The notes under the pieces were generated by a model. It had not been told where the DNA came from. It ran no database searches and saw nothing but the letters and a program-made list of their open reading frames with translations. Below are positions 12,517 through 41,650 of a DNA stretch of 64,000 nucleotides, piece by piece. Position numbers and translations under genes: made by a program. The stretch's first letter is position 1. Each line of letters opens with the position of its first letter. This DNA is from an uncultured Syntrophobacterales bacterium (lineage in GTDB: Bacteria > Desulfobacterota > Binatia > UBA9968 > JAJDTQ01). Location of the stretch: assembly GCA_964630405.1 (NCBI GenBank), contig CAZVUC010000017.1, forward strand, positions 48,536-112,535. The letters run 5' to 3'.

Positions 12517-12526
12517 GGGCGGTTCC

Positions 12527-13723
12527 TCAGGCTTCCGGCTGGTAGATCTCGCCGGGCATCTTGGACTTCATCCCCTCCTTGGCCAGGGTCTCCTCGAACT
12601 CCTTGCGCAGGAACGGATCCTCGTCCCGGTAGGCGATGGCGGTGCCGCCGTCCTTGATCTCGATGGCGCCGTAGTCGATGGCCTTCTCGCCGGGCCGGCC
12701 GCGCTCGCGTCCGGGCGCGTGGGGGCCGAACCAAGCCGACAGCCGCAACGGCTCCGCGCTGACGCCGAAGTGGGCATGGAACCAGTTGCCGCCCATGGGG
12801 GCCGCGCTCACCATGCCGACGGGCTCGTAGTCCTGCCGCTTCACCCCTTCCGCCTTGCCGTCCTTCCACGGCGTGGGACCCAGGGTGGAGGGCCAGGTAT
12901 AGGTGTAGCCCTTGCCCTTGACGCAGATGAGCACCGCGGCGGAGCCGTGGGCGTGGGCCTTGGAGTAGCGGCCGGTCTCGTGCTGGCCGATCCACAGGTA
13001 GAAGCTGTTGCCCACCATGTGCGGCTCGATGCGGCGGTAGCCGGGCGAGCGTCGGTTGTCCAGCGGCAACTCGCAGGTGACGATGTCCGGGATGATGTTG
13101 GTCTGGCGCATGGCCAGCCCGCGCACCGGATCCGGCTCGATCTCCTCGTTGGGCTTGTAGTAGTCCTCGGTCTCCTTGTAGCGGTCGCTGAAGACGTAGG
13201 GGCAGTTGAAGATGAAGTCGGTGTTGTTGAACAGGTTCATGATGTTGGGCGCGGTGGTCCCGGCCAACAGCAATGCCGGGCTCGAGGTCGCGTTGACGAT
13301 CTGGTACATGGCGTTCACCGGAATCGCGAACAGCGACCCCTGCTGCCACTCGAAGGTGTGCTTCTTGTCACTACCGTCGGCCCACACCTCGGTGGTGCCG
13401 CGGCCCTCGACCACGAAGAACTGCGCCTCGTACAAATGCTTCTGCGCGTTCAAGGCCCCGGCGCCGGGTACCTCCACCACGTAGGAACCCCAGAGCCCCT
13501 CCGTCCCCAGGAGCTGGATGAAGCTGGCGTTTCCTCCGACCCGCTTCCAATGCTTCAAGGGCAGGTTCTGGACCTTCTCCACGCCGATGTCCCGGTAGAT
13601 GGGGATCTCTTGCTCTTCCATGAAGGTATCGTAGGGCGTGTTGGGACGAAGGAACTTCCCGTAGCCCGCCTTCTGCATCTCGCCCGTGGGCTCCTGCCAT
13701 TTCTCTTTTCCGTTGCCAGCCAT
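12527..13723 (-). CDS. Bicupin protein (two cupin barrels), paralog 1
   Basis: 398 aa; two cupin-like blocks (FFVVEGRGTTEVW and AHAHGSAAVLICVKGKGYTY with an HxH metal motif); CAGGAGG RBS; 10 nt upstream of the eutA-like gene; about 60% identical to the ORF at 59002..60243. Confidence 0.6.
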   Translation of the reverse strand: MAGNGKEKWQEPTGEMQKAGYGKFLRPNTPYDTFMEEQEIPIYRDIGVEKVQNLPLKHWKRVGGNASFIQLLGTEGLWGSYVVEVPGAGALNAQKHLYEAQFFVVEGRGTTEVWADGSDKKHTFEWQQGSLFAIPVNAMYQIVNATSSPALLLAGTTAPNIMNLFNNTDFIFNCPYVFSDRYKETEDYYKPNEEIEPDPVRGLAMRQTNIIPDIVTCELPLDNRRSPGYRRIEPHMVGNSFYLWIGQHETGRYSKAHAHGSAAVLICVKGKGYTYTWPSTLGPTPWKDGKAEGVKRQDYEPVGMVSAAPMGGNWFHAHFGVSAEPLRLSAWFGPHAPGRERGRPGEKAIDYGAIEIKDGGTAIAYRDEDPFLRKEFEETLAKEGMKSKMPGEIYQPEA

Positions 13724-13816
13724 AAGTGCCTCCTGAAGTGTGTGTGCCGCTCAATATAGACAATAGGCGCCCGAGCGTCCAGGGTCGGCGGGGCGCGACC
13801 GGGTGCCGGGGGTGCC

Positions 13817-14905
13817 TCAAGGGTCGCGCGTCATCGTGACCGCGATATTGCCCACGTGGCGCTTGGCGATGAACGCCTGCTGGGCGGCGACCAGCTCGCG
13901 CAAGGGGTAGGTCGCTGCCAGCACGGGCTTGATCTCGCCACGCTCGATATAGCCCACGAGGTCGGCGAAGACCCCGGGCGGCGGCACCGTGGCGCCGGTG
14001 AACACCAGGTCGCGCAGGTAGAATGTTCTCAGATCGAACCGCACCATCGGCCCGGCGATGGCCCCGGCGCAGGTATACCGGCCACCCCGCGACAGGACCG
14101 AAATCAGCCGGGGCCAGAGCGGGCCGCCCACCACGTCGGCCACCACCGTCACCTCTCCGGCGCCGGTTGCCTTCACGAGGGCTGCCCTCAGGTCTTCCGG
14201 GGCACGCGGCAGCACATGATCGGCGCCGAGGGCCCTGACAGCCTCGGCCTTGTCCTCGCCGCAGAGCGCGACGGTCTGGGCGCCGCGACGCCGGGCGAGC
14301 TGGATCAGGGCGGAACCCACGCCGCCGGACGCCCCCGTCGCCAGAACCCGGTCCTGCGCTCCTACGCCGGCGCGGTTCAGCATGTACTCCGCGGTCAGAC
14401 AGGAGGTCGCGAAGGTTGCCAGCTCGGAATCCGAAAGATCGCTGTCCACCGCATGGACGTTTCGGACATCGGCCACGGTGTACTCGGCGAAGCCGCCGTC
14501 GCACTCCGAGCCCAAGTAGCCGCATTTGTCGCGATCGAGCGGATCCCTCCAGTCGCGCAGCCAGGGGTCCACCAGCACTCGCCTGTCCAGGAGCGCGGCG
14601 TCGCAACCAGCGCCGAGGGCAACCACCCGTCCGCACGCGTCCGCCCCCTGAATACGGGGAAAGGTGATGGGCTTGCCGCCCCAGGTCGCATCCGCGTCGC
14701 CGGCGTCTTGGAGCGCCTCACCGGTCGTGGCCTCGGAGACACCAGCCGAGTACCACCCCGTGCGGGTATTGACGTCGGTATTGTTGAGACCGCAGGCGCC
14801 GACTTCGATGAGAACCTGGCCGGGACCCGGCAGCGGACGCGGCCAATCCTCTCGATAGCCCAGCAGATCGAGGCCGCCGTGACCGGTCAACACCACGGCG
14901 CGCAT
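13817..14905 (-). CDS. Zinc-binding alcohol dehydrogenase / quinone oxidoreductase (MDR family)
   Basis: MRAVVLTGHGG...QVLIEVGACGLNNTD... MDR N-terminus; Rossmann motif VLATGASGGVGSALIQLA; start moved to the internal ATG at 14905. Confidence 0.7.
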   Translation of the reverse strand: MRAVVLTGHGGLDLLGYREDWPRPLPGPGQVLIEVGACGLNNTDVNTRTGWYSAGVSEATTGEALQDAGDADATWGGKPITFPRIQGADACGRVVALGAGCDAALLDRRVLVDPWLRDWRDPLDRDKCGYLGSECDGGFAEYTVADVRNVHAVDSDLSDSELATFATSCLTAEYMLNRAGVGAQDRVLATGASGGVGSALIQLARRRGAQTVALCGEDKAEAVRALGADHVLPRAPEDLRAALVKATGAGEVTVVADVVGGPLWPRLISVLSRGGRYTCAGAIAGPMVRFDLRTFYLRDLVFTGATVPPPGVFADLVGYIERGEIKPVLAATYPLRELVAAQQAFIAKRHVGNIAVTMTRDP

Positions 14906-15001
14906 GACGCCGGGCAAGGTCGGCCGGCCCCTGGACGTGCGATTCGTCGTCTTGCCGGCAGCCATTCCGGAAAGGGCACCCGCGTACCGAGAACCTTCGG
15001 G

Positions 15002-19995: not shown

Positions 19996-21078
19996 CTACC
20001 GCAGCCGCTCCGGCAGGTTGACGAAGGTGCTCATCTCGTGCGGCATGGCGGTAACCTGCGCTTTGCACACGTGGGCCGGAGTGAGCTGGTCGATGCTGGT
20101 GACGCCCAGCAGGCCCATGGCGATGACGATCTCGTTCTCCAGGAGTTGCAGCGCGCGCACCAGGCCCTCGTAACCCCCCGCCCCCAGGGCCCAGCCCTGA
20201 AGCTTGCCGATGGTCACGGCCTTGGCGCCCAGGGCCACCGCCTTCAGCACGTCGGTACCTCTCAGGAAGCCGCCGTCGATGATGATCTCGGCCTTGCCGC
20301 CCACGGCCTCCACGACTTCCGGGAGCATGTCCATGGTCCCCTGCCCGTGGTCGAGCTGGCGGCCGCCGTGGTTGGAGATGTAGATGACGTCCACGCCGTG
20401 CTTCAGGGCGACGGTTGCGTCCTCGGCGGTGGCCACGCCCTTGAGGAGGAACGGCATCCCGCCGATCTCCTTGATGGCGTCCATTGTCTCCCAGGTGAGC
20501 TTGGCCTGCCACAGCCGGTCCTGGTTGGCGGCCTCGCGCCGCTTGCTGGGCGGCAGCCAGCGGTTCATCAACTGCCGCTCCCGGTTGCTGTAGTGGGCCG
20601 AATCCACGGTGAGGCAGAGGGCCTTGTAGCCCGACTGCTTGACCCGTCCCAGGATCTCCTCGACCCAGTCCAGGCCGCCGCGGATATAGAGCTGGAATAT
20701 CTTGTCCGAGGGGGTGGCCGCGGCCGTCTCTTCGAGGGCGGGCTGGGTGACGGAGCTGACGAAGTTGACGGTGCCGAACTCGTTGGCGGCCTTGGCGGAG
20801 GCCACGGCGCCCTCCGGGGTGATCTGCTGAAGCGATCCGATGGGAGCCAGCATGACGGGAATGCGCAGCTTGTGGCCGAGCACCGTGGTGGAGGTGTCCA
20901 CCTCGGAGACGTCCACCAGCACCCGCGGACGAAGGGCCAGCGAGTCCAGGGCCAGCCGGTTGCGGCGCATGGTGGTCTCCGACTCGCTGCCGCCGCTCAG
21001 GTAGTCCCAGACCGGCTGGGGCAGGTTGCGCCGCGCGTCTACGATGATCTCCTGATTGCTGACGTACTGTTCACTCAT
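19996..21078 (-). CDS. FMN-dependent alpha-hydroxy acid dehydrogenase (L-lactate/glycolate oxidase family)
   Basis: Family motifs PVMLAPIG, SNHGGRQLD and IIDGGFLRGTDVLKAVALGA; start at MSEQYVSNQ. Confidence 0.8.
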   Translation of the reverse strand: MSEQYVSNQEIIVDARRNLPQPVWDYLSGGSESETTMRRNRLALDSLALRPRVLVDVSEVDTSTTVLGHKLRIPVMLAPIGSLQQITPEGAVASAKAANEFGTVNFVSSVTQPALEETAAATPSDKIFQLYIRGGLDWVEEILGRVKQSGYKALCLTVDSAHYSNRERQLMNRWLPPSKRREAANQDRLWQAKLTWETMDAIKEIGGMPFLLKGVATAEDATVALKHGVDVIYISNHGGRQLDHGQGTMDMLPEVVEAVGGKAEIIIDGGFLRGTDVLKAVALGAKAVTIGKLQGWALGAGGYEGLVRALQLLENEIVIAMGLLGVTSIDQLTPAHVCKAQVTAMPHEMSTFVNLPERLR

Positions 21079-21194
21079 TGCGATTCCCTTCCGACGAACG
21101 GCGTAAAGGCGCAACGGTGGGAGTCCGCATCCGCGGCGGACTCCCACCCGTCTCTTCCATCAATGACCGGCGGCCCCTGGGGCCTGGCTCGGAA

Positions 21195-22199
21195 CTACTT
21201 GCCGCGCTTCGGCAGAAGCTTCGGCAGGAACTCGTTGGTGTAGACGTCCTCCACCGCCGACTTCTTCGGAAGCTTCATGTGCGTGGTGATGAGGTTGTTG
21301 GTGAATACCATGCGGTCCTTGGTCATTTGGCCGATGCCCGCCTTCATGGCGTGGTCGGACAGCAGCGAGTCCACCGCGATGTCGAAGTGCTTCCGCGCCA
21401 GGTCCGGGCTGATGGCCGGGTTGTGCTTGATGAAGATGTCCACGGCCTCCTGCGGGTTCTCCACCGACCAGGCAATGCCCTTGTAGGTGGCGGTCAGAAA
21501 CCGTTTCACCAGGTCCGGCTTGTTCTTGAGGGTGTCCTCGTGCACCATCAGGCCGTTGCCGTAGGTAGCCATGCCGTGGTCGGCGAACAGCAGGTACAGC
21601 GGCTTCTTGCCGACCTTCGCGGCGGCCGCGTCCAGCGTCGGCTTCTCGGTGTAGAAGATGAGGATGGCATCCACCCGTCCGGCCAGGAGGCTCGGGACGG
21701 TGGCGGGCACCGTCATGTTGATCCACTTGACCTTCTTGTCGTCGAACTTGTTGATGTTGGCGAAGGCCGGGAAGATGACCCGCGCGGCGTTGGCCTCGGG
21801 CGAGCCGATCGTCTTTCCTTCGAGGTCCGCCGGCTTGGTGATCTTGTTCCCCACCAGCGTGGCCAGGGTCTCCAGGGTCTTGTCGTGGACCATGCCCACC
21901 ATCTTGAGCTTGGCGCCCCGCGACCGGCCGGCGATCATGTTGCCCACCGAAGCGAAGCCGAAGTCGTCGGTGCCCGAGGCGATGCGCTTCACGGTGTCGC
22001 CGGAGCCGAAGCCTCGGGTCATCTGCACGTCGAGACCCGCTTCCTTCCAGAACCCCTTGTCGATGCTCACGTAGTACATGGCGTGCTTGCCGTAGGGGAT
22101 CCAGTCCAGCGCGAACTTGACCTTGTCCATGGCCGAGGCGCTGCCGATGCCCGTCACGTACAGCAGAAAAATCGCAAGCGCGATGAATATGCGTTTCAT
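21195..22199 (-). CDS. ABC transporter substrate-binding protein, NMT1/THI5 (NitT/TauT) family
   Basis: Signal peptide MKRIFIALAIFLLYVTGIGSASA followed by KVKFALDWIPYGKHAMYYV, typical of SsuA/TauA/NMT1-like SBPs. Confidence 0.75.
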   Translation of the reverse strand: MKRIFIALAIFLLYVTGIGSASAMDKVKFALDWIPYGKHAMYYVSIDKGFWKEAGLDVQMTRGFGSGDTVKRIASGTDDFGFASVGNMIAGRSRGAKLKMVGMVHDKTLETLATLVGNKITKPADLEGKTIGSPEANAARVIFPAFANINKFDDKKVKWINMTVPATVPSLLAGRVDAILIFYTEKPTLDAAAAKVGKKPLYLLFADHGMATYGNGLMVHEDTLKNKPDLVKRFLTATYKGIAWSVENPQEAVDIFIKHNPAISPDLARKHFDIAVDSLLSDHAMKAGIGQMTKDRMVFTNNLITTHMKLPKKSAVEDVYTNEFLPKLLPKRGK

Positions 22200-22239
22200 T
22201 TCCTGTACCTCCCCGCGTTAGAGCGTGTTTGCAACTACC

Positions 22240-23025
22240 TTACAGATACTGCAGCCCGATGGTCTTTCCCACTTGCCTGACGCATTCGGTGAACTCCGCC
22301 GACAACCGCATCTCCGGGGTCCGGGGCCGCGGCAGCCCTATTTTGATGATGTCGGTGATCCGGCCCGGCCGGGGCGTCATCACCATCACCCGGTCGGCCA
22401 GGAAGACCGCTTCGGGGATCGAATGGGTGATCAGCAGGCTGGTCTTCTTCTTTTCGCTCCAGATGCGCTGAAGCTCCATGTTCATCTCGCCCCGGGTCAT
22501 GGCGTCCAGGGCGCCGAAGGGCTCGTCCAGCAACAGCAGCGAAGGGTCGTGCACCAGTGCCCGGCTGATGGACGCGCGCTGCTGCATGCCGCCGGACAAC
22601 TCCCGCGGGTACTTGTCCTTGAACTCCGTGAGTCCGGTCAGCTCCAGCAACTCCAGGGCCTTGGGATAGTATTCATCCTTGGAAAGGCCGAGTATCTCCA
22701 CCGGCAACAGGACGTTGTCGATGACCGAGCGCCACTGAAACAGCACGGGTGTCTGGAACACGATGCCGGTGCTGGACTTGGGCCCCGTCACCGGCGCGCC
22801 GTTCACCAGCACCTCGCCCCGGGTCTTGTCGAGCAGCCCGGCGATGATCTTCATGATCGTGGTCTTGCCGCAGCCGCTGTGGCCCACCAGGGATATGAAC
22901 TCCTGCTCGTAGACCTCGAACGAGGCGTCCTCGAGCGCCACGATGGGCGCATCCTTGGAAGGATACACCTTGGTGAGGCTCCTGACCTCGATGGCTTTCC
23001 CGTTCGTCATGGACATCGATTCCAA
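22240..23025 (-). CDS. ABC transporter ATP-binding protein (NitT/TauT family)
   Basis: Walker A GHSGCGKTT, signature LSGGMQQR and Walker B LLLDEPFGALD; start is ambiguous among three nearby ATGs. Confidence 0.8.
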   Translation of the reverse strand: MESMSMTNGKAIEVRSLTKVYPSKDAPIVALEDASFEVYEQEFISLVGHSGCGKTTIMKIIAGLLDKTRGEVLVNGAPVTGPKSSTGIVFQTPVLFQWRSVIDNVLLPVEILGLSKDEYYPKALELLELTGLTEFKDKYPRELSGGMQQRASISRALVHDPSLLLLDEPFGALDAMTRGEMNMELQRIWSEKKKTSLLITHSIPEAVFLADRVMVMTPRPGRITDIIKIGLPRPRTPEMRLSAEFTECVRQVGKTIGLQYL

Positions 23026-23076
23026 ACTCGATCCGCCCCGGCCGGCCGGATGTTCTCCATCCGCCGGGAGCCGGCC

Positions 23077-23862
23077 TTACATGCCGAAGCCCGTCATCTC
23101 CTGCTCATCCTCGCCGATGCTCCAAGGGATCAACCACATTTCCAGCAGCACCAGGACGCCGTAAAGGACCAGGCCCAGGGCCGACAGCACGACCAGGGCC
23201 GCGAACATGAACGGCGTATTGACCTCGTAGTTGGCGACCATGACCAGGTACCCGAGGCCGGTGTTGCCGCCGACGAATTCGCCGATGATGGCGCCGATGA
23301 CCGCCAGCGTGATGGCGATCTTGAGGCCGCCGAAGAAGTGTGGCAACGCGTTGGGCAGGCGGACCTTGGAGAAGATCTGCCAGTCCGAGGCCTGGAGCGA
23401 CTTGACCAGGTCCAGCATCTCGGGCTGCACCATGCGCATGCCCTGGACCGTGGTGACGATGATGGGGAACCACGAAACCAGGAACGCGATGAGCACCTTG
23501 GACATTTCGCCGTAACCCACCCAGATCAGCAGCAGCGGCGCGATGGCCACCTTGGGAACGATCTGGGCCACGAGGATCAGCGGGTAGAGAAGATTCTGGA
23601 GCAACCGGGAGTAGACGATCATGATGGCCGAGATCACCCCCAGCACGAGCCCCATGAGGAACCCGTAGATGGTTTCCCGGAAGGTCACGAGGCAGTTCTG
23701 CATGAGGGGAAAGAACTTCTCGATGATGGTCCAGAAAATCTTCGACGGCGCGGGCAGCAGGAACTCGGAGACCGAGAACAACCACACCGACACCTCCCAA
23801 AGCAGCGTGAAGAGGATGAGACTGGAGGTGATGGTGCCGAGCTCCTTGAAACGTTCAACCAT
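23077..23862 (-). CDS. ABC transporter permease (SsuC/TauC-like)
   Basis: Six predicted TMS and an EAA-like loop region; sits upstream of the ATPase and SBP genes, forming an operon. Confidence 0.8.
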   Translation of the reverse strand: MVERFKELGTITSSLILFTLLWEVSVWLFSVSEFLLPAPSKIFWTIIEKFFPLMQNCLVTFRETIYGFLMGLVLGVISAIMIVYSRLLQNLLYPLILVAQIVPKVAIAPLLLIWVGYGEMSKVLIAFLVSWFPIIVTTVQGMRMVQPEMLDLVKSLQASDWQIFSKVRLPNALPHFFGGLKIAITLAVIGAIIGEFVGGNTGLGYLVMVANYEVNTPFMFAALVVLSALGLVLYGVLVLLEMWLIPWSIGEDEQEMTGFGM

Positions 23863-24040: not shown

Positions 24041-24256
24041 ATGCCGGACAAGGTATCGATCTTCGGGCACGACCACTGAGACTACACCGCGAGTGCCCGG
24101 CGGGACTACTCGGACAGAAACATCCCCATCGAATACATCAACGTGCTGGAGGACGAGGACGGCCTCCGGCGCATGATGGACCTCAACGACGGCAGCCGCG
24201 AGATCCCGGTCATCGTGGAGGACGGCAGGGTCACCGTCGGCTTCGGCGGAAGCTGA
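24041..24256 (+). CDS. Glutaredoxin/NrdH-like protein with in-frame TGA at the redox-active position: putative selenoprotein (U-x-x-T)
   Basis: ATG at 24041 reads MPDKVSIFGHDH-TGA-DYTASARRDYSDRNIPIEYINVLEDEDGLRRMMDLNDGSREIPVIVEDGRVTVGFGGS. It aligns colinearly with the Grx fold (VEIYTKETCPYCHRAKALL...TVPQIFIDAQHIGG), and the TGA at 24077 falls exactly on the first Cys of CPYC. A hairpin lies 11 nt downstream. The ORF is missing from the six-frame track because of the TGA. Confidence 0.6.
24090..24112 (+). promoter_or_regulatory. Candidate bacterial SECIS hairpin
   Basis: CGAGU-G-CCC-GGC-GGG-ACU-ACUCG stem-loop starting 11 nt after the in-frame UGA, with a G-rich apical loop as in bSECIS elements. 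Confidence 0.4.
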
Positions 24257-24366
24257 GCGGTGTAGCGGCCGCGGTCGCGGCCGGGAAATTGACTTGCAGC
24301 GGGGTCATCGGATATTCTCCGTCTTGACCGTCGCGTGATTTCACCCGATCCCCTCGGAGGTTTGCG

Positions 24367-25329
24367 ATGATCAAGCACGTCGTTCTCGTGAAGCTGAAGC
24401 CGGACGCCTCCCCCGATCAAATCGACAGGATGATCGAGGGCTACAACTCCATGAAGGAATCCATCCCGGACCTGCTGAGCTGGTCCATGGGAGCGAACCT
24501 GCGCCGTGACGGCGACTACGACTACGCCATGGTGGCCATCTGCGAGGACGCGGAGAGCCTCCAGCGCTACGTGGACCACCCGGTGCACCGGCAGGTGGCC
24601 CAGGAGGTCGGGCGGCCGATCTTCCAGAGCCGGGAGATCGCCGACTACGAGTTCGACCCCGAGGAGGAGATGTGGGAGCCCCAGGTGCAGGAGGTGTGGA
24701 CCGAGCTGTCGGACACGGTCAAGCCCGCGCACACGGCCCTGGTGGTCATCGACGTGCAGAACGACTTCTGCGCCCCCGGCGGCGCGCGCATGAAGGGCGA
24801 CCTGAGCTTCGTCGAGGCCATGCGCGAGCCGTTGAAGGTGATGGTGGAAGCGGCCCGGGCCGCGGGGGTGCCGGTCATCTACACCCAGACCTCCAACGAC
24901 AACGAGCACGACAACGGCCCGATCCTGGCCCGGCGCGCCCGGGTGGGACTGGCCAATGCCAAGTACACCGTCCCGGGGACCCCGGGATGGGACGTCTGCG
25001 ACTTCGTCGCGCCCGCTCCGGAGGACGTCCGGATCAAGAAGTGGCATCACAGCGGCTTCACCAACCCCAGGATGGACTCCACCCTGGGGCGCCTGGGCAT
25101 CAAGACCTTGCTGTTCACGGGCGCCGCCACCAACGGCTGTGTCGAGGCCACGGTGCGGGACGCGTTCGCACGGGGCTACTACAACGTGGTGCTGGAAGAC
25201 TGCGTGGCGGCCTACGACGCCGACTTGCAGCGCTACTCGCTCAAGAACATGGCCACCCATTTCGCGCTCATCAGCACCAGCCGCGAAGTGCAGCGCACAT
25301 GGGCGGAACAGGGGGCGCTGGCGGGCTGA
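24367..25329 (+). CDS. Fusion protein: N-terminal Dabb (stress-responsive alpha-beta barrel) domain plus C-terminal isochorismatase-family cysteine hydrolase
   Basis: Residues 1-95 MIKHVVLVKLKPDASPDQIDRMIEGYNSMKESIPDLL... match the Dabb fold. The remainder carries the isochorismatase triad context VVIDVQNDF (Asp), KK and LLFTGAATNGCVEATVRDA (Cys). GGAGG RBS. Confidence 0.7.
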   Translation: MIKHVVLVKLKPDASPDQIDRMIEGYNSMKESIPDLLSWSMGANLRRDGDYDYAMVAICEDAESLQRYVDHPVHRQVAQEVGRPIFQSREIADYEFDPEEEMWEPQVQEVWTELSDTVKPAHTALVVIDVQNDFCAPGGARMKGDLSFVEAMREPLKVMVEAARAAGVPVIYTQTSNDNEHDNGPILARRARVGLANAKYTVPGTPGWDVCDFVAPAPEDVRIKKWHHSGFTNPRMDSTLGRLGIKTLLFTGAATNGCVEATVRDAFARGYYNVVLEDCVAAYDADLQRYSLKNMATHFALISTSREVQRTWAEQGALAG

Positions 25330-25411: not shown

Positions 25412-26233
25412 ATGGCCACAGCCACAGCCGAGAAACTCGACGACACCGTCGAAGCAAGCTTCAACTACATGGTCCACAAGGGCCCCCGGCCCGTCACCAC
25501 GTTCGAAAAGCCCAGCCTCGGCTACCCGCACAAGGACCGGACGTACGAGACCCACACCGCGCTGGTCCGAAACGGGCGCAACCACCCCGAGCTCTCCGTC
25601 GAGCACCACGGTTTCGCCCTGCGGCCCCAGCCCACGAAAATGACCGACTTCTTCGACGAGGACGAGATACGGGCGGTCTACTATCCCGAGATGGAGGCGC
25701 TGATCAAGGAAAACACCGGCGCCTGCCGGGTGCTGATCTTCGACCACACCTTGCGCTCCGGCTACGAGGAGAAAGGCGCCAAGGGACCGGTCCAGAACGT
25801 GCACAACGACTACACCGAGTGGTCCGGCCCGGAGCGGGTGCGGGACCTGCTGCCGGACGAGGCGGAGGAGTTGCTCAAGAAACGTTTCGCCGTGGTCCAG
25901 GTGTGGCGCGGCATGCTGAACCCGGTCCTGCGGGACCCCCTGGCCATGTGCGACGCCCAGAGCATCGCCACCGAGGACCTCATCCCGACCGTGCGGCCGC
26001 ATCCCAACCGGTTGGGCGAGACCTACCACCTGACCTACAGCCCCGACCACCGGTTCTACTACTTCCCGGACATGCAGCCGGACGAGGCCATCGTCTTCAA
26101 GTGCTACGACTCGAAGACGGACGGACGGGCGCGCTTCTCCGCGCATTCCGCCTTCGAGCATCCCGACACCGCGGAGGACGCGCCGCCGCGGGAGAGCATC
26201 GAGATCCGCACCCTGGCGTTCTTCGACGAATAG
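25412..26233 (+). CDS. Hypothetical protein, possibly a CmcJ/NvfI-family oxidoreductase
   Basis: 273 aa soluble protein with AAAGGAGA RBS; the family assignment is from memory of this family's length and conserved blocks (VQNVHNDYT, YYFPDM) and is weak. Confidence 0.35.
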   Translation: MATATAEKLDDTVEASFNYMVHKGPRPVTTFEKPSLGYPHKDRTYETHTALVRNGRNHPELSVEHHGFALRPQPTKMTDFFDEDEIRAVYYPEMEALIKENTGACRVLIFDHTLRSGYEEKGAKGPVQNVHNDYTEWSGPERVRDLLPDEAEELLKKRFAVVQVWRGMLNPVLRDPLAMCDAQSIATEDLIPTVRPHPNRLGETYHLTYSPDHRFYYFPDMQPDEAIVFKCYDSKTDGRARFSAHSAFEHPDTAEDAPPRESIEIRTLAFFDE

Positions 26234-26263
26234 AAATCCGGCGGCGGGCTTGCGCCCGCCGCC

Positions 26264-26641
26264 CTACTCCTCATCGAATCCGCGTTTAAAACGGCGGCGC
26301 CAGTAGGCGTCCAGCGCCTCGTAGAGGCCCGGGTCCGCCTTCTTGTTCTTGACGAACCAGTCCCCCAGGATGTCGATGCTGTGGTCCACGTCCACCACCG
26401 GGTTGGAGGCGAACAGCACCATCTGCGACAGCGCCTTGCGGCTGGCGTTCTTCTCCAAGGCGTTCCCCAGGCCGACGAGGAACACCTCCCGCTGGTCCGT
26501 CCGAAGGCGATTGTAGAGGCTCCAAAGGACCGACGCGGCGCCGTACCGCTCCACGTCATCGGCGGTGTCGCGGTCGAGGCCCAGAGTGATGCGCACGATG
26601 AGCCGCTCGTAGCCTCTTATGTCGTAGTACTCGTACGCCAT
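26264..26641 (-). CDS. Hypothetical protein (125 aa)
   Basis: Clean ORF starting MAYEYYDIRGYERL..., 56 nt downstream of the ThDP enzyme gene on the same strand; no recognisable motif. Confidence 0.45.
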   Translation of the reverse strand: MAYEYYDIRGYERLIVRITLGLDRDTADDVERYGAASVLWSLYNRLRTDQREVFLVGLGNALEKNASRKALSQMVLFASNPVVDVDHSIDILGDWFVKNKKADPGLYEALDAYWRRRFKRGFDEE

Positions 26642-26697: not shown

Positions 26698-28482
26698 TCA
26701 GCGCCGCTGCGTTACCGTATCCACCAGCGCCGGCTTGCCCTGCTTGACCTGTTCGATGGCGCGGTCCAGCGCCGGCCGGAGGTCGTCGGCGTTCTCGATG
26801 GGGCCCTCGCCGTACCAGCCCATGGAGCGGGCCATGGTGGCGAAGTCGGGGTCCGGGCCGCACAGGTCCATGCCGATATGGGCGCGGTTTGGATCGGTGC
26901 CGCGGTTCCGGGCCATGACGATCTGGTGGTTCCAGTCGTTGTAGTAGGCGCGGTTGTTGTACATCACGATGAGCATGGGGATCTCGTACTTGGCGGCGAT
27001 CCACAGGCTGCCGGCGTCGAACATCAGGTCGCCGTCGGGCTGAAGGTCCACCACCAGCCTCCCCTTGCCCCTGTGGGCCAGGGCCACCCCCAGGGAGATA
27101 CCGATCTGCGTGCCGGTTCCCAGCTCACGCCCGCCGTGGCGGTAGGGCTGGTCGAAGTTCCACAGCCGGCGCGCCCAGTCGTGCAGCGTGCCGGAGGTCA
27201 GCACCCAGTCCTCGTCCTTGATGGCGTCCCACACCTCCAGCGCCAGCCGCGGCACGGTCATGGGCACTGCGTCCCAGCGGTCCTCTTTCGCCTGGCGGAG
27301 CCACTCGGCCCGGACCTCGGCGTGGCGCTTGCCCACCTCCTCGGTCCTCTTCGCGATCTGTTCGGCCCGGCCCGGCGTCCCGGCGATGCGTTCCTTCACC
27401 AGCTTCGTCAACGCCGGCGCCGCGGTCACGGGGTCCGCGGTCATGCGCTGGTGGGCGTAGAACGGCCGGGCGTAGGTCATGGCCCACTTGCTGATCTCCG
27501 TGTCGGTGTAGCCGATGTCGATCCAGGTGGCGTCCTCCGGCACCATGCTGACCACGGTGCGGGTGGCGATGTCGCGCACGTGGGTGGGTTTCTCGAAGTC
27601 CGCGATGTCCAGCGTCAGCACCACGTCCGCGTCCTTGTAACAGCCTTCGCTGTCCATGCTCAGGTTCAACGGATGCTCGCTGGGGAAGTTGAGGCGCGAG
27701 TCGCAGTCCCACACCGCCGCTCCGAGGGTCTCGGCCAGCTCCACCACGTGGTCCCAGCCGTGGGGCGGACGGGCGGCGAAGTCGGCCACGATGACCGGGC
27801 GTTTGGCCGCCGCCAGGGTGTCGGCCGCCTTCTCCAGCGCCGTGGGGTCCGCCATGGCCTGCGCGGGCACGTGCACGTTGTCCTCCGGCGGCATGGCCAC
27901 CTCGTGGTCCAGCGCGGCCTCCTGGAGGCCGGCGTCGTAGCACATGTAGATGGGCCCCTGCTTGCCGCTCATCATCACCGCATAGGCCCGGGCAAAGGCG
28001 CCGGGCACGGCGTCGATGGTGGTGGGCTGGGAGTCCCACTTGACGTAGTGGCGGATGGCCTCGCCCTGGACGCTGGCGGAATGGATCCAGTCGATGAAGG
28101 GGCGCCGCTTGGGCTCTTCCATGGGGCCGGTGGCGCCCATGATGAAGATCGGCGCGCGGTCGAGATAGGCGTAGTAGATGCCCATGGGCGCGTGCAGCAG
28201 CCCCACCAGGTTGTGGACGATGGCGATCATCGGCTTGCCGCTGGCGCGGGCGTAGCCGTGGGCGATCTGCACCGCGATCTTCTCGTGGTTGCACAGCATC
28301 ATCGGCGGGTCGTTCTCGCCGTAGTTCACCAGCGAGTCGTGGAGGCCCCGGTAGCTAGCCCCGGGGTTGAGCGCGATGTACTCGAACCCGTAGCGCTTGA
28401 CCATGTCGACGATGACGTCCGACTGCCACTTGCGGTCGGATTTCTTGATCTCGACCGTCTCGATCCTTTCGGCTTTGCTCAT
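26698..28482 (-). CDS. Thiamine-diphosphate-dependent enzyme (acetolactate synthase / benzoylformate decarboxylase superfamily), paralog A
   Basis: N-terminal Pyr domain (ALNPGASYRGLHDSL...NHEKIAVQIAHGYA) and C-terminal PP domain with ThDP motif GTGTQIG...DLQPDGDLMFD...NN; about 90-aa charged helical insertion; GAGGA RBS. Confidence 0.8.
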   Translation of the reverse strand: MSKAERIETVEIKKSDRKWQSDVIVDMVKRYGFEYIALNPGASYRGLHDSLVNYGENDPPMMLCNHEKIAVQIAHGYARASGKPMIAIVHNLVGLLHAPMGIYYAYLDRAPIFIMGATGPMEEPKRRPFIDWIHSASVQGEAIRHYVKWDSQPTTIDAVPGAFARAYAVMMSGKQGPIYMCYDAGLQEAALDHEVAMPPEDNVHVPAQAMADPTALEKAADTLAAAKRPVIVADFAARPPHGWDHVVELAETLGAAVWDCDSRLNFPSEHPLNLSMDSEGCYKDADVVLTLDIADFEKPTHVRDIATRTVVSMVPEDATWIDIGYTDTEISKWAMTYARPFYAHQRMTADPVTAAPALTKLVKERIAGTPGRAEQIAKRTEEVGKRHAEVRAEWLRQAKEDRWDAVPMTVPRLALEVWDAIKDEDWVLTSGTLHDWARRLWNFDQPYRHGGRELGTGTQIGISLGVALAHRGKGRLVVDLQPDGDLMFDAGSLWIAAKYEIPMLIVMYNNRAYYNDWNHQIVMARNRGTDPNRAHIGMDLCGPDPDFATMARSMGWYGEGPIENADDLRPALDRAIEQVKQGKPALVDTVTQRR

Positions 28483-28522
28483 TTCGTGTTCCTCGGTTTC
28501 AGTTTTCGGCCCGACCCCCAAT

Positions 28523-28621
28523 CGTCATTCCCGCGAAAGCGGGAATCCAGGGGTGGGGACGGGTGGACGGAATTGCCGCGGCGCCCCGCCCCGCCTGAAT
28601 TCCCGCTTTCGCGGGAATGAC
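28523..28621. repeat. Inverted pair of palindromic units (CGTCATTCCCGCGAAAGCGGGAAT ... ATTCCCGCTTTCGCGGGAATGACG) flanking a 51-bp G-rich spacer
   Basis: Each unit is itself a perfect hairpin of ATTCCC-N8-GGGAAT form (loop GAAA or TTTC); the two copies are reverse complements of each other; lies in the intergenic region between the two ThDP paralogs. Confidence 0.7.
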
Positions 28622-28706
28622 GGAGAGGCCGCGGGACAGGGCGGAGAGGCCACAGGACCTGGACATAACGGGGAGGGGGCTGGACATGACAAGGAACGGC
28701 CAGCCC

Positions 28707-30473
28707 TCAGGTGTTGATGTCCCGGCGCCAGACGATGGGGTCCACCAGCGCCGGCTTGCCGGCCTTGACCTGCTCGATGGCCCGGCGTACCGCCGGCACC
28801 ACCTCCGCCGGGTCGTCGATGGGGCCTTCGGCGTACCAGCCCATGCCCCGGGCGATGTGGGCAAAGTCCGGCGGCGGCGCCTCGAGATCCATGCCGATGT
28901 AGGCCCGGTCGGGGTCGGTGCCGCGCTGGTGGGCCATGTGGATCTGGTGCGCCCAGTCGTTGTAGTAGGCGCGGTTGTTGTACATGATCACCAGCATGGG
29001 GATGTCGTACTTGATGGGCATCCATAGCGCCCCCAGGTCGAACATGAGGTCGCCGTCGGGCTGGAGGTCCACCACCAGCCTCCCCTGCCCCTTGTGGGCC
29101 AGCGCCACGCCGACGGACATGCCGATCTGGGTGCCGGTGCCCAGCTCCCGGCCCGGATGCCGGTAGGGCCGGTCGAAGTCCCATATCTTCTGGACCCAGT
29201 CCTTCAGGGTCCCGGCGGTCAGCACCCAGTCCTCGTCCTTGATGGCCTGCCACACCTCGTAGGCCAGCCGGGACTCGGTCATGGGCCGCTGGTCCATTTC
29301 CTTCTCGACCTGCTGCTGCCACTTCCGCCATTGCTGCTCGTGCTTGTCCGCCAACGCCTTCTTGCGCTCCTCGACGCGCTCCTTCAGCGCCGCGTCGGCG
29401 TCGATGAGGGCGCCGCACGCCTGGGTGAGCGCCGGGATGGTGATGGAGGTGTCCCCCATGACCCGCAGGTCCCAGTTGTTGTGCTTGTTGTAGTCGGTGG
29501 CCCACTTGCTGATCTCGATGTCGGCGAAGCCCGCGTCGACCCACTTGCAGTCCGGCGTCGTCACCACCGTGATCTCGCGGGTCTGGGTGTTGAGCTTGTG
29601 AGAGCCCCGGGTCCAGTCCACCACGTCGAGCGCCATCACCAGGTCCACCCCCGCAAAGGCGTCCGGGTTGAAGCTCATGCTCAAGGGATGGCGGTTGGGG
29701 AAGCCCAGCCGTTTACACACGTCGAACACCGATGCCCCGACCGTTTCGGCCAGCTCCACAGTGGGCTCATAGCCCTCCGGCATGCGCGCGGCGTACTCGG
29801 TGAGCAGCAACGGGTTGTCCGCGTTCACGAGCATTTCGGCGGCCTGGGCCACCGCCCCCTGCTCCGGCGCGATGCGCGACGGCACCTTCACCGCCGACGC
29901 CGGCGGGATCGTTATGTCGTCGGTGAGCGGGGTTTCCTGCAGCGCCGAGTCGTAGCACATGTAGATGGGGCCCTGGGGCTCGCTCATCATGATGGAGTAG
30001 GCCCGTGCGAAGGAGTCCGGCACGCCATGGATGCTGCCGGGCTGATAGTCCCACTTGGTGAAGTTCCGCACCGCGTCGCCCTGGGCGAACGCCGTATGGA
30101 TCCAGTCGATGAACGGGCGCCGGTACTTCTCGTCCATGGGGCCGGTGGCGCCGATGACGAACACCGGGCAGCGGTCGATGTAGGCGTAGTAGACGCCCAT
30201 GGGCGCGTGCAGCAGCCCCACCACGTCGTGCACGATGGCGATCATGGGCTTGCCCGACGCCTTGGCGTAGCCGTGGGCGATCTGCACCGCGATCTTCTCG
30301 TGGTTGCACAGCAGCATCTCGGGATCGTTCTCGCCGTAGTTCACCATGGAGTCGTGGAGACCCCGGTAGCTCGCCCCCGGGTTCAGCGCGACGTAGGGGA
30401 TGTCGTAGAGTTTCATGAGGTCGACGATGACGTCCGACTGCCAGCGCTGCTCCGATTTCTTGATATCCGACAT
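28707..30473 (-). CDS. Thiamine-diphosphate-dependent enzyme, paralog B (tandem duplicate of 26698..28482)
   Basis: About 60% identical to paralog A along its full length, including ...LNPGASYRGLHDSMVNYGENDP...NHEKIAVQIAHGYAKASGKPMIAIVH... and ...GTGTQIGMSVGVALAHKGQGRLVVDLQPDGDLMFD... Confidence 0.8.
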   Translation of the reverse strand: MSDIKKSEQRWQSDVIVDLMKLYDIPYVALNPGASYRGLHDSMVNYGENDPEMLLCNHEKIAVQIAHGYAKASGKPMIAIVHDVVGLLHAPMGVYYAYIDRCPVFVIGATGPMDEKYRRPFIDWIHTAFAQGDAVRNFTKWDYQPGSIHGVPDSFARAYSIMMSEPQGPIYMCYDSALQETPLTDDITIPPASAVKVPSRIAPEQGAVAQAAEMLVNADNPLLLTEYAARMPEGYEPTVELAETVGASVFDVCKRLGFPNRHPLSMSFNPDAFAGVDLVMALDVVDWTRGSHKLNTQTREITVVTTPDCKWVDAGFADIEISKWATDYNKHNNWDLRVMGDTSITIPALTQACGALIDADAALKERVEERKKALADKHEQQWRKWQQQVEKEMDQRPMTESRLAYEVWQAIKDEDWVLTAGTLKDWVQKIWDFDRPYRHPGRELGTGTQIGMSVGVALAHKGQGRLVVDLQPDGDLMFDLGALWMPIKYDIPMLVIMYNNRAYYNDWAHQIHMAHQRGTDPDRAYIGMDLEAPPPDFAHIARGMGWYAEGPIDDPAEVVPAVRRAIEQVKAGKPALVDPIVWRRDINT

Positions 30474-39370: not shown

Positions 39371-41650
39371 ATGAAATACGTGGGCCAATCGGTACGCAGT
39401 CTCGATGCGGACGAAAAAGTCACCGGCACCGCCGTCTACACGGCGGATTTGACGGTGCCGGGAATGAAGTTCGCCAGGGTCATCGGCAGTCCCCACGCGC
39501 ACGCGCGCATCGACGGGTTCGACCTCGAAGACGCGCTCGCGGTCCCCGGCGTGCGCACCATCGTGACCCATGACAGCCTCGACTTCAGCCGGCTGGGGTG
39601 CCTCCGCACCCTCAAGCCGTACGGCCAGGCGGTGAAGGACCGCCCGGTGCTGGCCCACGACAAAGTGCGGTTCCAGGGCGAGCCCGTGGCCATCGTGGTG
39701 GCCGACAGCGAGACCGCGGCGGTGGAGGCGGCGGCGCGGGTCGACGTGCGGTACACGCCGCTGCCCCAGGTGTCGGAGATGATGTCGGCGATGGAGGGCG
39801 GCACGCTGGTGCACGACGCCGATTCCGCCTACGACCGTGAGGGCGAAAGCGACTTCGACCACGACTACGGCCGCAACAACTGCGGCGGCACCCACTTCGT
39901 CCAGGGGGACCCGGAGGGGGCCTTCCGCGAGGCCGCCCACGTCATCGAGGACCATTTCTCCTTCCCGTCCCTGTTCCACTATCCCATGGAGCCCCACTGC
40001 GCCGTGGCCACGGTGGACGACGAGTCCGTCACCGTGCACACCTCCTCGCAGGCTCCCTTTCCGGTGCGCGACGAACTGGCGCGCATGTTCGGGCTCGAGC
40101 AGGAGCAGGTGACGGTGAAGGTCCCGTACGTCGGCGGCGGCTTCGGCGCCAAGGGCCACATCGGCGTCGAGCACCTGGCGATCCTGGCGGCGGCCGCCTC
40201 CGGGGAGACGGTGCAGCTTCGCATGTCCATGGAGGAGACCGCGTTCACCGCCCGGCGCCATCCCGCCGAGATCGAGATCCGCACGGGGCTGCGCGAGGAC
40301 GGCACGCTGCTCTGCCGGGAGGCCAGGATCTACCTGGACACGGGCGCCTACGCCGACTTCGGCATCCAGGTGACGCGCAAGGCGGCCTTCCGCTCCGTGG
40401 GACCCTACCGGGTGGAGCACGCCCGGGCCGACTGCTACTCCGTCTACACCAACAAGGTGCCCGCCGGCGCCTTCCGGGGCATCGGCAGCGTCCAGCTCGG
40501 CTGGGCCTGCGAAGCCCACACCGACCACATCTGCACCGAGCTCGGCTACGACCCCATCGAGTTCCGCCTCAAGAACCTGCTGCGGGCCGGCGAGAAATAC
40601 GTGCTCGGCGGTCCGCCGCTGGACGGCAATCCCCATGGAGCGCTGACGGCCTGCCTGGAGCTCTTCGAGAAGACCCGCCGAATCCACGCCCCCGAGTCCC
40701 TGGCGCGAGCCGGCGAGAAGATCGGCACCGGCGTCGCCTGCGCCATCAAGGACCTCTCCACCACCCAGTACAACGCCCGCATCGTGTTCGAGGACGACGC
40801 CACCTTCACCGTCCACGCCAACGCCCCGGAGATCGGGGGCGGCGCCAAGACGGTGCTGGCCCAGACCGCCGCCGAGGCCCTCGGGGTGGGCATCGACCGG
40901 ATCACCATCGCCCCCTACGACACCAGCACCACGCCCGGCGCCTCCGGCGTCTACGGCAGCCGCATCACCGTGCTCATGGGCAACGCGGTGAAGCGGGCGT
41001 CCGAGGAACTGCGGGAGTTGCTGCTGCAACAGGCGGCGTCCCTGACCGACCGGGACGCCCGGGACCTCTCGCTGGAAGACGACGCTTTCTCGAGCGAAGG
41101 CGAGCCGGTAATGACCCTGGACGAGCTGGCGGAAAGGACCACGGGGACCCTTGTGGGCCGGGGCATGGACAAGGCCCTCACCCGCGACCGCATCGACATC
41201 CGCACCTGGGAGATCAACGCCGGCATCGCGGTGATGGCGGTGGACTCGGAAACCGGCAGGGCGCGCTGCCTGACCTACGTCTCCTCGGCCGACATCGGAC
41301 AGGCCATGCACCCGCTCCGGTGCGAGGGACAGGAGCAGGGCTCGATCATGTTCGGCATGGGCAACACGTTGACCGAGGAGCAGGTGTTCGACGGCGCCCT
41401 GCTGCTCAACCCCAGCGCCATCGACTACGCCCTGCCGCGGTTCAAGAACCTGCCGGCGGTGCTCGACTCCGTGCTGATCGAGAACCGGGACGGCCCCGGC
41501 CCCTTCGGCAGCAAGGGTATGGCCGAGGGCGGGCTGGCGCCGGTGGCCCCGGCCATCGCCGCGGCGTTGAGAGAGGCCGTGGGCATCGTGGTCCACGACC
41601 TGCCCATGAGTCCCGAGCGGGTGTACCGGCTGATGGAGCCCGGCGGCTGA
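39371..41650 (+). CDS. Molybdopterin-dependent oxidoreductase, xanthine dehydrogenase/aldehyde oxidase family Mo-binding subunit
   Basis: 759 aa with XDH-family blocks ...GGGFGAKG..., ...AFRGIGSVQ..., ...FGSKGMAEGG...; 270-nt leader upstream. Confidence 0.8.
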   Translation: MKYVGQSVRSLDADEKVTGTAVYTADLTVPGMKFARVIGSPHAHARIDGFDLEDALAVPGVRTIVTHDSLDFSRLGCLRTLKPYGQAVKDRPVLAHDKVRFQGEPVAIVVADSETAAVEAAARVDVRYTPLPQVSEMMSAMEGGTLVHDADSAYDREGESDFDHDYGRNNCGGTHFVQGDPEGAFREAAHVIEDHFSFPSLFHYPMEPHCAVATVDDESVTVHTSSQAPFPVRDELARMFGLEQEQVTVKVPYVGGGFGAKGHIGVEHLAILAAAASGETVQLRMSMEETAFTARRHPAEIEIRTGLREDGTLLCREARIYLDTGAYADFGIQVTRKAAFRSVGPYRVEHARADCYSVYTNKVPAGAFRGIGSVQLGWACEAHTDHICTELGYDPIEFRLKNLLRAGEKYVLGGPPLDGNPHGALTACLELFEKTRRIHAPESLARAGEKIGTGVACAIKDLSTTQYNARIVFEDDATFTVHANAPEIGGGAKTVLAQTAAEALGVGIDRITIAPYDTSTTPGASGVYGSRITVLMGNAVKRASEELRELLLQQAASLTDRDARDLSLEDDAFSSEGEPVMTLDELAERTTGTLVGRGMDKALTRDRIDIRTWEINAGIAVMAVDSETGRARCLTYVSSADIGQAMHPLRCEGQEQGSIMFGMGNTLTEEQVFDGALLLNPSAIDYALPRFKNLPAVLDSVLIENRDGPGPFGSKGMAEGGLAPVAPAIAAALREAVGIVVHDLPMSPERVYRLMEPGG

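Follow-up and report, generated by a model that had tools for sequence, protein, structure and literature searches.

What do two adjacent and closely related genes for thiamine diphosphate (ThDP)-dependent enzymes do in an uncultured Syntrophobacterales bacterium, and why are there two of them? The genes lie in a 64,000-nucleotide stretch of contig CAZVUC010000017.1 (assembly GCA_964630405.1, positions 48,536 to 112,535; Desulfobacterota, Binatia in the GTDB lineage), which we refer to as the window. An original prediction, made from the sequence, described them as tandem paralogues about 60% identical, each with a charged helical insertion of about 90 residues, and suggested that they may belong to an uncharacterised small-molecule pathway. 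Here we report that the two genes, ThDP_B and ThDP_A (B and A below), represent an uncharacterised decarboxylase-type ThDP subfamily with an unusually conserved pairing of paralogues, which makes it a target for enzyme discovery. The subfamily is large: searches retrieved more than 7000 related proteins, for the most part from Alphaproteobacteria of marine origin and from Binatia of soil or the sea. None of its members has been characterised, and the name that annotation pipelines give it is 'acetolactate synthase'.

Two ThDP-dependent paralogues outside the named families

The open reading frames and their Pfam matches place B and A head-to-tail on the minus strand, as predicted, both of them full-length and 58% identical to each other (336 of 584 positions). 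Both give significant matches to TPP_enzyme_N and TPP_enzyme_C and a weak match to TPP_enzyme_M. Translation of A is taken to start at the ATG at 28482, which has a GAGGAA Shine-Dalgarno sequence ahead of it; an alternative upstream TTG at 28521 would give a protein of 607 aa. Homologues of B with 88–98% protein identity are on about 20 chromosomes of metagenome-assembled genomes (MAGs) of uncultured Candidatus Binatia; an exact look-up of the B protein gave no record. From their sequences, A and B are predicted to be co-transcribed and catalytically intact paralogues, each with a Pyr-TH3-PP architecture.

Family membership of A and B was tested using the curated cut-offs of NCBIfam, and neither protein reaches the cut-off of any curated ThDP family. 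The best-scoring curated model is PRK08327 (246.4 bits for A and 247.4 bits for B, cut-off 456), followed by PRK06154 (125–147 bits, cut-off 607), neither of which carries an enzyme name, and then for both proteins by benzoylformate decarboxylase (BFD; PRK07092, 140.5 bits for A and 122.4 bits for B, cut-off 493). Scores are lower with AruI (PRK07524, 101.6 bits for A and 93.8 bits for B, cut-off 500), acetolactate synthase (ALS; TIGR00118, 104 and 90 bits, cut-off 538, and 50–104 bits with all ALS models, cut-offs 363–1084), 2-hydroxyacyl-CoA lyase (HACL; NF058623, 80.2 and 71.8 bits, cut-off 600), Xsc (TIGR03457, 63.5 and 63.6 bits, cut-off 676, and 61–74 bits when PRK07525, cut-off 620, is included), and Gcl (PRK11269, 59–69 bits, cut-off 791). 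No IolD model was found among the 25 best NCBIfam families listed for each protein, of 47–49 matched, the weakest of those listed scoring 50–63 bits. The assignment by profile models that had been proposed as a check thus sets the pair apart from ALS/IlvB, Xsc, AruI, BFD, HACL and Gcl, and the plain alternative that both genes fall inside a well-known clade such as ALS/IlvB is not borne out.

Because A and B score 246–247 bits against a cut-off of 456, they form a sister subfamily to PRK08327, and by sequence they are closest to BFD. To our knowledge PRK08327, named 'thiamine pyrophosphate-requiring protein', has no known function. A and B share the signature motifs NPGASYRG, C-x-HE, GATGP...RRPFIDW and NNRAYYNDW-x-HQ, which the PRK08327 members in the alignment lack in that form. 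The polar, Arg-rich character of two of these (RRPFIDW and NNRAYYNDW-x-HQ) suggests a polar or anionic substrate. The best match among sequences in the PDB is the BFD-like protein 4q9d of Mycobacterium smegmatis (E = 1e-28). A Foldseek search with the predicted structure of B returned 4q9d, an actinobacterial HACL (AcHACL), benzaldehyde lyase (BAL), AHAS, cyclohexane-1,2-dione hydrolase (CDH) and GCL, all with probability 1.00, template-modelling (TM) scores of 0.70–0.74 and 15–20% identity.

Both chains have the three-domain Pyr-TH3-PP organisation of the decarboxylase-type ThDP superfamily, and they resemble BFD (MdlC, 1BFD; also 4q9d) in this fold, in the catalytic Glu and first catalytic His, and in the Mg-ThDP motif. 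Residue E59 of B aligns with E47 of BFD, the corresponding Glu of A lies in a CNHEKIA motif, and none of the 54 sequences in the alignment departs from this Glu; H82 aligns with BFD H70 and is invariant in the aligned relatives. The motif P472-D473-G474...N499-N500, which conforms to the GDG-X(24–27)-NN signature of Mg-ThDP binding, aligns with BFD G427-D428-G429...N454-N455, with the same Asp-to-Asn spacing of 27 residues, albeit with Pro in place of the first Gly. None of the A, B, second-pair (see below) or PRK08327-like sequences examined has lost the Glu, His, DG(D) or NN motif, which rules out the idea that one paralogue is a dead copy retained as a regulatory subunit. A and B differ from BFD in overall identity, which is only about 20%, and in the substrate pocket, where hydrophobic residues of BFD give way to polar ones: Asn505 stands in place of A460, and the counterpart of F464 is Ala508 in B and Asn518 in A.

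The charged segment between the central and PP domains does not have the extent first ascribed to it. Enrichment in Lys, Glu, Arg and Gln (50–70% per 10-residue block) is confined to residues 361–400 of B, and the charged stretch is about 35 residues long. In the AlphaFold2 model of B (mean predicted local distance difference test score, pLDDT, 78.6; predicted TM score 0.81), strands of the central domain run up to residue 339, its last helix spans 342–358, and a single 31-residue helix with a pLDDT of about 96 occupies 361–391. We used as BFD reference a Pseudomonas putida sequence identical to 1BFD over all 528 residues, and aligned it to the family profile with hhalign; residues 17–579 of B align with BFD 9–521 through the whole region, the extra residues relative to 1BFD numbering about 14 in the linker and about 15 in a loop at 311–335. 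The supposed insertion is thus the second half of the standard TH3 domain together with the interdomain linker helix. Nor is such a segment peculiar to A and B. In a profile search of PDB sequences, AcHACL (7pt1) aligned end to end, with a charged segment opposite the helix and almost no difference in length. The PRK08327 model also aligned end to end (8–567 of 571), and a linker of this length is therefore typical of the wider PRK08327-like group.

Together, the hhalign alignment to 1BFD, the hmmsearch alignment to AcHACL and the modelled secondary structure rule out an insertion of 90 residues, and in the predicted structure the charged helix is the normal TH3-to-PP linker, modestly lengthened. 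In BFD the linker is an extended segment, whereas in A and B it is a long helix in which R370, H378 and W385 are invariant in the family alignment. The spacing of these residues puts them roughly on one face, which presumably packs on the body of the protein, leaving the other face exposed to solvent. The second ThDP pair of the Alphaproteobacteria lacks a charged helix, and the form of the linker therefore differs between subfamilies. We attach no special interest to the linker helix in its own right.

Conservation and phylogeny of the paralogue pair

Loci related to the window were collected by scanning one genome per species, which yielded 80 loci, and were compared with the window proteins by tblastn; 69 of these loci have enough downstream sequence to be informative as to the gene that follows. 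In 59 of the 69, A comes after B on the same strand, with a median spacer of 149 nt and several spacers of only 6–22 nt. Orthologues in Binatia are 77–98% identical to the window proteins and have the same gene order. In Alphaproteobacteria the B orthologues are 70–73% and the A orthologues 73–79% identical to those of the window, and many of these loci also keep A behind B.

Neighbour-joining trees with 200 bootstraps recover an A clade and a B clade, each with 100% support. Each clade holds both Binatia and Alphaproteobacteria, with the Binatia monophyletic within each (100% and 94.5%). At 30 positions different residues are fixed in the two clades; these cluster in the central domain and in a loop at 287–295, and one of them is the counterpart of BFD F464, which is Ala in B and Asn in A. 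The sequences thus show that the duplication is old and that the B-A operon was retained in both Binatia and Alphaproteobacteria. A singleton from Phyllobacterium shares 57–58% identity with A and with B, and 67% of replicates put it outside A+B. Among the B-type singletons, L076, L078 and L079 are basal in the B clade, and L057 and L067, joined in a larger tree by L061 and L071, are nested within it.

Single-copy homologues 56–58% identical to B were also noted in the cultured rhizobia Phyllobacterium zundukense and Sinorhizobium mexicanum, S. chiapasense and S. terangae, on the plasmid records NZ_CP104971.1 (467025–468803, P. zundukense), NZ_CP041241.1, NZ_CP133152.1 and NZ_CP121660.1. A gene for a TctC binding protein adjoins the homologue in Phyllobacterium and in S. 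mexicanum, and Phyllobacterium has the full TctABC set. These cultured strains are possible experimental handles on the subfamily.

The alphaproteobacterial loci are islands with further ThDP genes. They contain a second ThDP pair, of 602 and 598 aa and 57% identical to each other, the first gene of which is overlapped by 4 nt by a gene for a flavin mononucleotide (FMN)-dependent 2-hydroxyacid dehydrogenase (FMN_dh). All bootstrap replicates (100%) recover this pair as monophyletic, which rules out a single duplication common to both pairs. The islands also contain a true PRK08327 gene (573 aa and 645 bits in L081) and one further ThDP gene. Islands with six ThDP genes were seen in a Rhodospirillaceae MAG (L081, JAYQSL010000002.1, 1–21776) and in L051, L053, L058, L062 and L073; the same islands carry three FMN_dh genes and genes for a molybdenum (Mo) oxidoreductase, TauD, Rieske, Amidohydro_2, glyoxalase and alpha/beta-hydrolase proteins.

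Why should both paralogues be kept? BFD is a homotetramer made from a single gene, whereas here there are two conserved paralogues. In the reading that we tentatively prefer, A and B would differ in their substrate pockets, and each could form a homotetramer of its own or both could join in a mixed A/B tetramer. A more radical proposal is that the two proteins are subunits of an obligate alpha2beta2 heterotetramer. Since a ThDP site is formed where the Pyr domain of one chain meets the PP domain of the other, pairing A with B would create two non-equivalent active sites, PyrA/PP_B and PyrB/PP_A, which could serve two substrates or two successive steps. The order of the genes is strictly kept across phyla with spacers down to 6–22 nt, constraint is similarly strong in the two clades, neither copy has lost a cofactor or catalytic motif, and the clades differ at a pocket residue and in an active-site loop, all of which would fit such an enzyme. 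So would the second pair of like divergence in the same islands; because it was duplicated independently, the same solution would have arisen twice. However, B-type genes stand without an adjacent A in 10 of the 69 informative loci, including the nested lineage of L057, L061, L067 and L071, and the rhizobial homologues are single-copy. Moreover, a DUF3891 gene (280 aa) lies between B and A in nine alphaproteobacterial loci (including L056, L058–L060, L062, L064, L066 and L073, at about 11850–12700), spacers reach 100–600 nt in others, and neither subunit is degenerate.

There is a partial precedent in ComDE, the heteromeric ThDP decarboxylase that acts on sulfopyruvate, in which, as could be the case here, the products of two adjacent ThDP-chain genes assemble into one enzyme. 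ComD and ComE are separate Pyr and PP halves, whereas A and B are each a complete Pyr-TH3-PP chain with all motifs, and we know of no alpha2beta2 arrangement of complete chains among decarboxylase-type ThDP enzymes. On balance we think an obligate heterotetramer unlikely, albeit not so unlikely as to be set aside. If true, it would be a new quaternary design in a superfamily that is used in biocatalysis, represented by a large metagenomic family devoted to a catabolic route for organic acids.

Neighbouring genes and a possible catabolic role

The genes within 10 kb of the pair, or of the B gene where it stands without A, were counted by locus group. FMN_dh genes were found at 15 of 17 alphaproteobacterial pair loci (in 2–3 copies), 13 of 22 close Binatia loci, five of the ten B-only loci and none of 27 soil Binatia loci. 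Large subunits of the Mo aldehyde-oxidoreductase type are present at 15, 9, 4 and 0 of the same loci, respectively; in the Alphaproteobacteria the subunit is encoded divergently upstream in 15 of 17 loci, as it also is in L083, and its best NCBIfam model, matched below cut-off, is 'glyceraldehyde dehydrogenase alpha'. Oxygenases of three iron- and 2-oxoglutarate-dependent (Fe/2OG) families occupy neighbouring positions in three lineages, these being CmcJ (21 of the close and three of the soil Binatia loci), TauD (12 alphaproteobacterial loci) and PhyH (four B-only loci). The spacing can be close: the PhyH gene of L078 starts 10 nt after the B-type gene, and in the soil Binatia locus L022 the order is B, A, CmcJ, with a 30-nt gap after A and a CmcJ protein 57% identical to the window copy. 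Importers also recur, although their type varies with lineage between NitT/TauT and Liv ATP-binding cassette (ABC) systems, tripartite ATP-independent periplasmic (TRAP) systems and tripartite tricarboxylate transporters (TTT). Of these, the TRAP and TTT systems are importers of organic acids, and the ABC types are less specific. The survey of syntenic loci that the original prediction had called for therefore finds both the gene order and the oxidative and importer neighbours recurring across lineages.

The window itself has an FMN_dh gene (Pfam FMN_dh, 356 bits; NCBIfam matches below cut-off), whose product is 54% identical by BLASTP to the FMN_dh protein encoded beside the ThDP pair in a Rhodospirillaceae MAG. 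It shares an operon with a NitT/TauT-type importer whose binding protein matches Pfam NMT1 and, at 79 bits and below cut-off, SsuA_fam; the synteny of this importer is kept in close relatives.

Pairing of an FMN_dh-family 2-hydroxyacid dehydrogenase with a ThDP enzyme recalls the mandelate pathway, in which the FMN-dependent mandelate dehydrogenase MdlB works with the benzoylformate decarboxylase MdlC. Because importer, Fe/2OG oxygenase, FMN_dh, ThDP enzyme and Mo oxidoreductase genes recur together, we infer a catabolic, one-carbon-shortening route. An organic acid would be imported, hydroxylated at C-2 by the Fe/2OG oxygenase where needed, and oxidised to the 2-oxoacid by the FMN-dependent dehydrogenase; the ThDP pair would then decarboxylate the 2-oxoacid, and the resulting aldehyde could be oxidised by the Mo aldehyde oxidoreductase. 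The likeliest role, although we hold it at somewhat less than even odds, is that A and B carry out the non-oxidative decarboxylation of a 2-oxoacid in such an alpha-oxidation-like route, the paralogues having two different pockets. The association of FMN_dh, Mo oxidoreductase and Fe/2OG oxygenase outlines a route of this kind for an environmental organic acid that can be put to the test.

Several observations weigh against this role. The soil Binatia loci have neither an FMN_dh nor a Mo enzyme gene within 10 kb, their neighbours being instead a Liv-type ABC transporter, MmgE/PrpD, a class II aldolase and a bicupin. The Mo enzymes of the window are 9–17 kb away from the pair, and the better match of the two, a CoxL-like protein of 778 aa, shares no more than 42% identity with the conserved neighbour. 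Of the other catalytic residues of BFD, Ser26 corresponds to Ala34 here, and the counterpart of His281 is ambiguous: it aligns with Gly290, and a nearly invariant H292 stands two residues on in a gapped loop. Neighbourhood evidence cannot name the substrate, and a literature search gave nothing relevant for this subfamily, for heteromeric ThDP enzymes, for PRK08327, for Binatota and thiamine, or for CmcJ/NvfI. Finally, the full-length similarity to 2-hydroxyacyl-CoA lyase and the PhyH neighbours fit a lyase equally well.

That last point leads to the proposal that A and B are C-C lyases or carboligases, like HACL, BAL or CDH, and cleave a product hydroxylated by the Fe/2OG enzyme. In peroxisomal alpha-oxidation of phytanic acid, PhyH acts together with HACL1, and this 2-hydroxylation followed by ThDP-dependent removal of one carbon is mirrored by the Fe/2OG oxygenases found here, not only by the PhyH gene of L078, at which loci an enoyl-CoA hydratase is also encoded, but by CmcJ and TauD in other lineages. 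AcHACL aligns with A and B over its full length, including a charged linker of similar length, and its TM score is about 0.73; Foldseek scores to AcHACL, BAL and CDH are no worse than those to the BFD-like 4q9d. Nevertheless, the HACL model gives only 72–80 bits against a cut-off of 600, below the 122–140 bits of the BFD model, and the BFD-type His that is invariant here (H82) is absent from HACL and is Thr in AcHACL. The most consistent partner is the FMN 2-hydroxyacid dehydrogenase, the product of which is a 2-oxoacid, and no acyl-CoA ligase or transferase, or other CoA-activating enzyme, was seen among the conserved neighbours. Decarboxylation is favoured over an HACL-type reaction because of this His and the partnership with FMN_dh, and we regard a lyase as improbable.

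With decarboxylation in a catabolic route as the preferred role, the suggestion of an uncharacterised small-molecule pathway holds as to 'uncharacterised', although the importers, 2-hydroxyacid dehydrogenase, oxygenases and aldehyde oxidoreductases point to breakdown of a compound and not to its synthesis. A biosynthetic cluster for a secreted small molecule, with the ThDP enzymes as carboligases and an EamA transporter as exporter, would account for the EamA and DUF4399 genes upstream of the pair and for a CmcJ/NvfI-type oxygenase, whose relatives are, by family name, from antibiotic and meroterpenoid pathways. We consider it very improbable, given that the neighbourhood has no polyketide synthase, nonribosomal peptide synthetase or terpene synthase, that EamA and DUF4399 adjoin the pair only in close relatives, and that the partners shared across lineages are importers dependent on solute-binding proteins and oxidative catabolic enzymes. 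Ordinary paralogy of ALS (IlvB/IlvG/AlsS) or of another named enzyme (Xsc, AruI, Gcl), with the small gene after the pair as regulatory subunit, is what the label 'acetolactate synthase large subunit' given to homologues by metagenome pipelines would imply, but it can be dismissed for practical purposes, as the ALS, Xsc, AruI and Gcl models all score far below their cut-offs and refute curated membership, no ilv genes are nearby, and the small gene, orf125, is all-helical, lacks an ACT/IlvN domain and is limited to one Binatia lineage.

Other features of the window

Coordinates of the pair and of the surrounding features are given in Table 1.

Table 1. Location of the ThDP gene pair and of associated genes and sequence elements in the window.
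Feature	Position	Strand	Remarks
ThDP_B	28707–30473	−	588 aa; first gene of the pair; open reading frame, Pfam N/M/C
ThDP_A	26698–28482	−	594 aa; second gene of the pair; 58% identical to B
orf125	26264–26641	−	125 aa; 56 nt 3' of A
Palindromic repeat element, B-A spacer	28527–28618		arms ATTCCCGCGAAAGCGGGAAT at 28527–28546 and 28599–28618
GC-rich hairpin	26240–26263		10 GC pairs; separates orf125 from the convergent CmcJ-like gene
CmcJ/NvfI-family (Fe/2OG-type) oxygenase	25412–26233	+	NCBIfam NF041278, 298 bits, cut-off 80
Dabb + isochorismatase-family (RutB/BiuH-like amidohydrolase) fusion	24367–25329	+	Pfam/NCBIfam
UXX-star selenoprotein, glutaredoxin-like	24041–24265	+	74 codons, two in-frame TGA, TAG stop
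NitT/TauT-type ABC importer	21195–23862	−	permease 23077–23862, ATPase 22240–23025, NMT1/SsuA-like binding protein 21195–22199
FMN-dependent 2-hydroxyacid dehydrogenase/oxidase (LldD/lactate-oxidase-like)	19996–21147	−	closes the importer operon
Mo-hydroxylase large subunits (Ald_Xan_dh_C + MoCoBD)	39371–41650 and 47395–49731	+	

The small gene orf125 follows the ThDP genes, which are thus upstream of it and not downstream, as the heading of the original prediction had it; the text of that prediction gave the order correctly. It is a real gene, as judged by a third-codon-position bias of its substitutions (218, 133 and 772 on codon positions 1, 2 and 3 relative to 23 homologues), and it is probably co-transcribed with the pair. 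No match to it was found in Pfam or NCBIfam, nor an ACT/IlvN domain, and its predicted seven-helix model matches no fold in the PDB. Only 22 clusters of homologues were found, and 19 of them match along the full length with 68% identity or more. When 1.84 billion representatives were searched with a profile, there were five matches; four belong to the family, whole or as fragments, and the remaining one is an unrelated Ig-repeat protein. One homologue, 69% identical, adjoins MgtE and an NMT1-type ABC transporter on its contig, and not ThDP genes. We conclude that orf125 is confined to one Binatia lineage and lies outside the conserved ThDP module, and its all-helical character, the lack of ACT/IlvN and this restriction rule it out both as an ALS-type small subunit and as a conserved partner of the pair. 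The GC-rich hairpin beyond it is likely to be the terminator of the B-A-orf125 transcript.

The 224-nt spacer between B and A in the window is enlarged by a palindromic element with a stem of about 29 bp and no T-run after it. The palindrome occurs once in the window, where none is expected by chance, and its predicted RNA fold has an energy of −120.9 kcal/mol (z = −6.5). Several near-identical relatives have a spacer of only 18–22 nt, without the long insert. Because relatives that are 88–98% identical have spacers of anything between 10 and 378 nt, the palindrome looks like a mobile insertion resembling a repetitive extragenic palindrome or a miniature inverted-repeat transposable element (REP/MITE-like).

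Three genes had been described as converging on the pair, and all three are present as such, with matches in NCBIfam or Pfam for the CmcJ-like protein and the Dabb-isochorismatase fusion and two in-frame TGA codons in the glutaredoxin-like selenoprotein. The TGA codons of the latter are codon 13, in the redox motif, and codon 72, in a C-terminal U-A-V-stop; with U read as C the protein scores 99.7 bits with the NCBIfam 'UXX-star selenoprotein family 1' (cut-off 72). The Dabb-isochorismatase fusion is a neighbour of the pair only in close Binatia relatives, and is thus lineage-specific and outside the conserved core. On the other side of the pair, two open reading frames of 164 and 287 aa upstream of the 778-aa Mo subunit (46017–47361) could encode its small and medium subunits.

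Farther away on the minus strand (11020–14965) the window has genes for an EutA-like ATPase (11020–12516), a 398-aa bicupin (12527–13723) and a Zn-dependent alcohol dehydrogenase (13817–14965), and a second bicupin gene is at 59095–60177. A bicupin (30% identical) and an EutA-like gene (40%) also follow the single ThDP homologue on the Phyllobacterium zundukense plasmid (L086, 12720–15522), and bicupins 30% identical are encoded near the pair in soil Binatia. The bicupin and EutA-like genes were considered as a universal partner of the ThDP enzymes; they occur in the window, at a distance of 13 kb, and in Phyllobacterium but not in Sinorhizobium, and so the association is not general.

One homologue 89% identical (P0010) has about 80 residues, at alignment columns of about 430–510, that read like an out-of-frame translation, which is probably the result of a frameshift or an assembly error in the metagenome contig.

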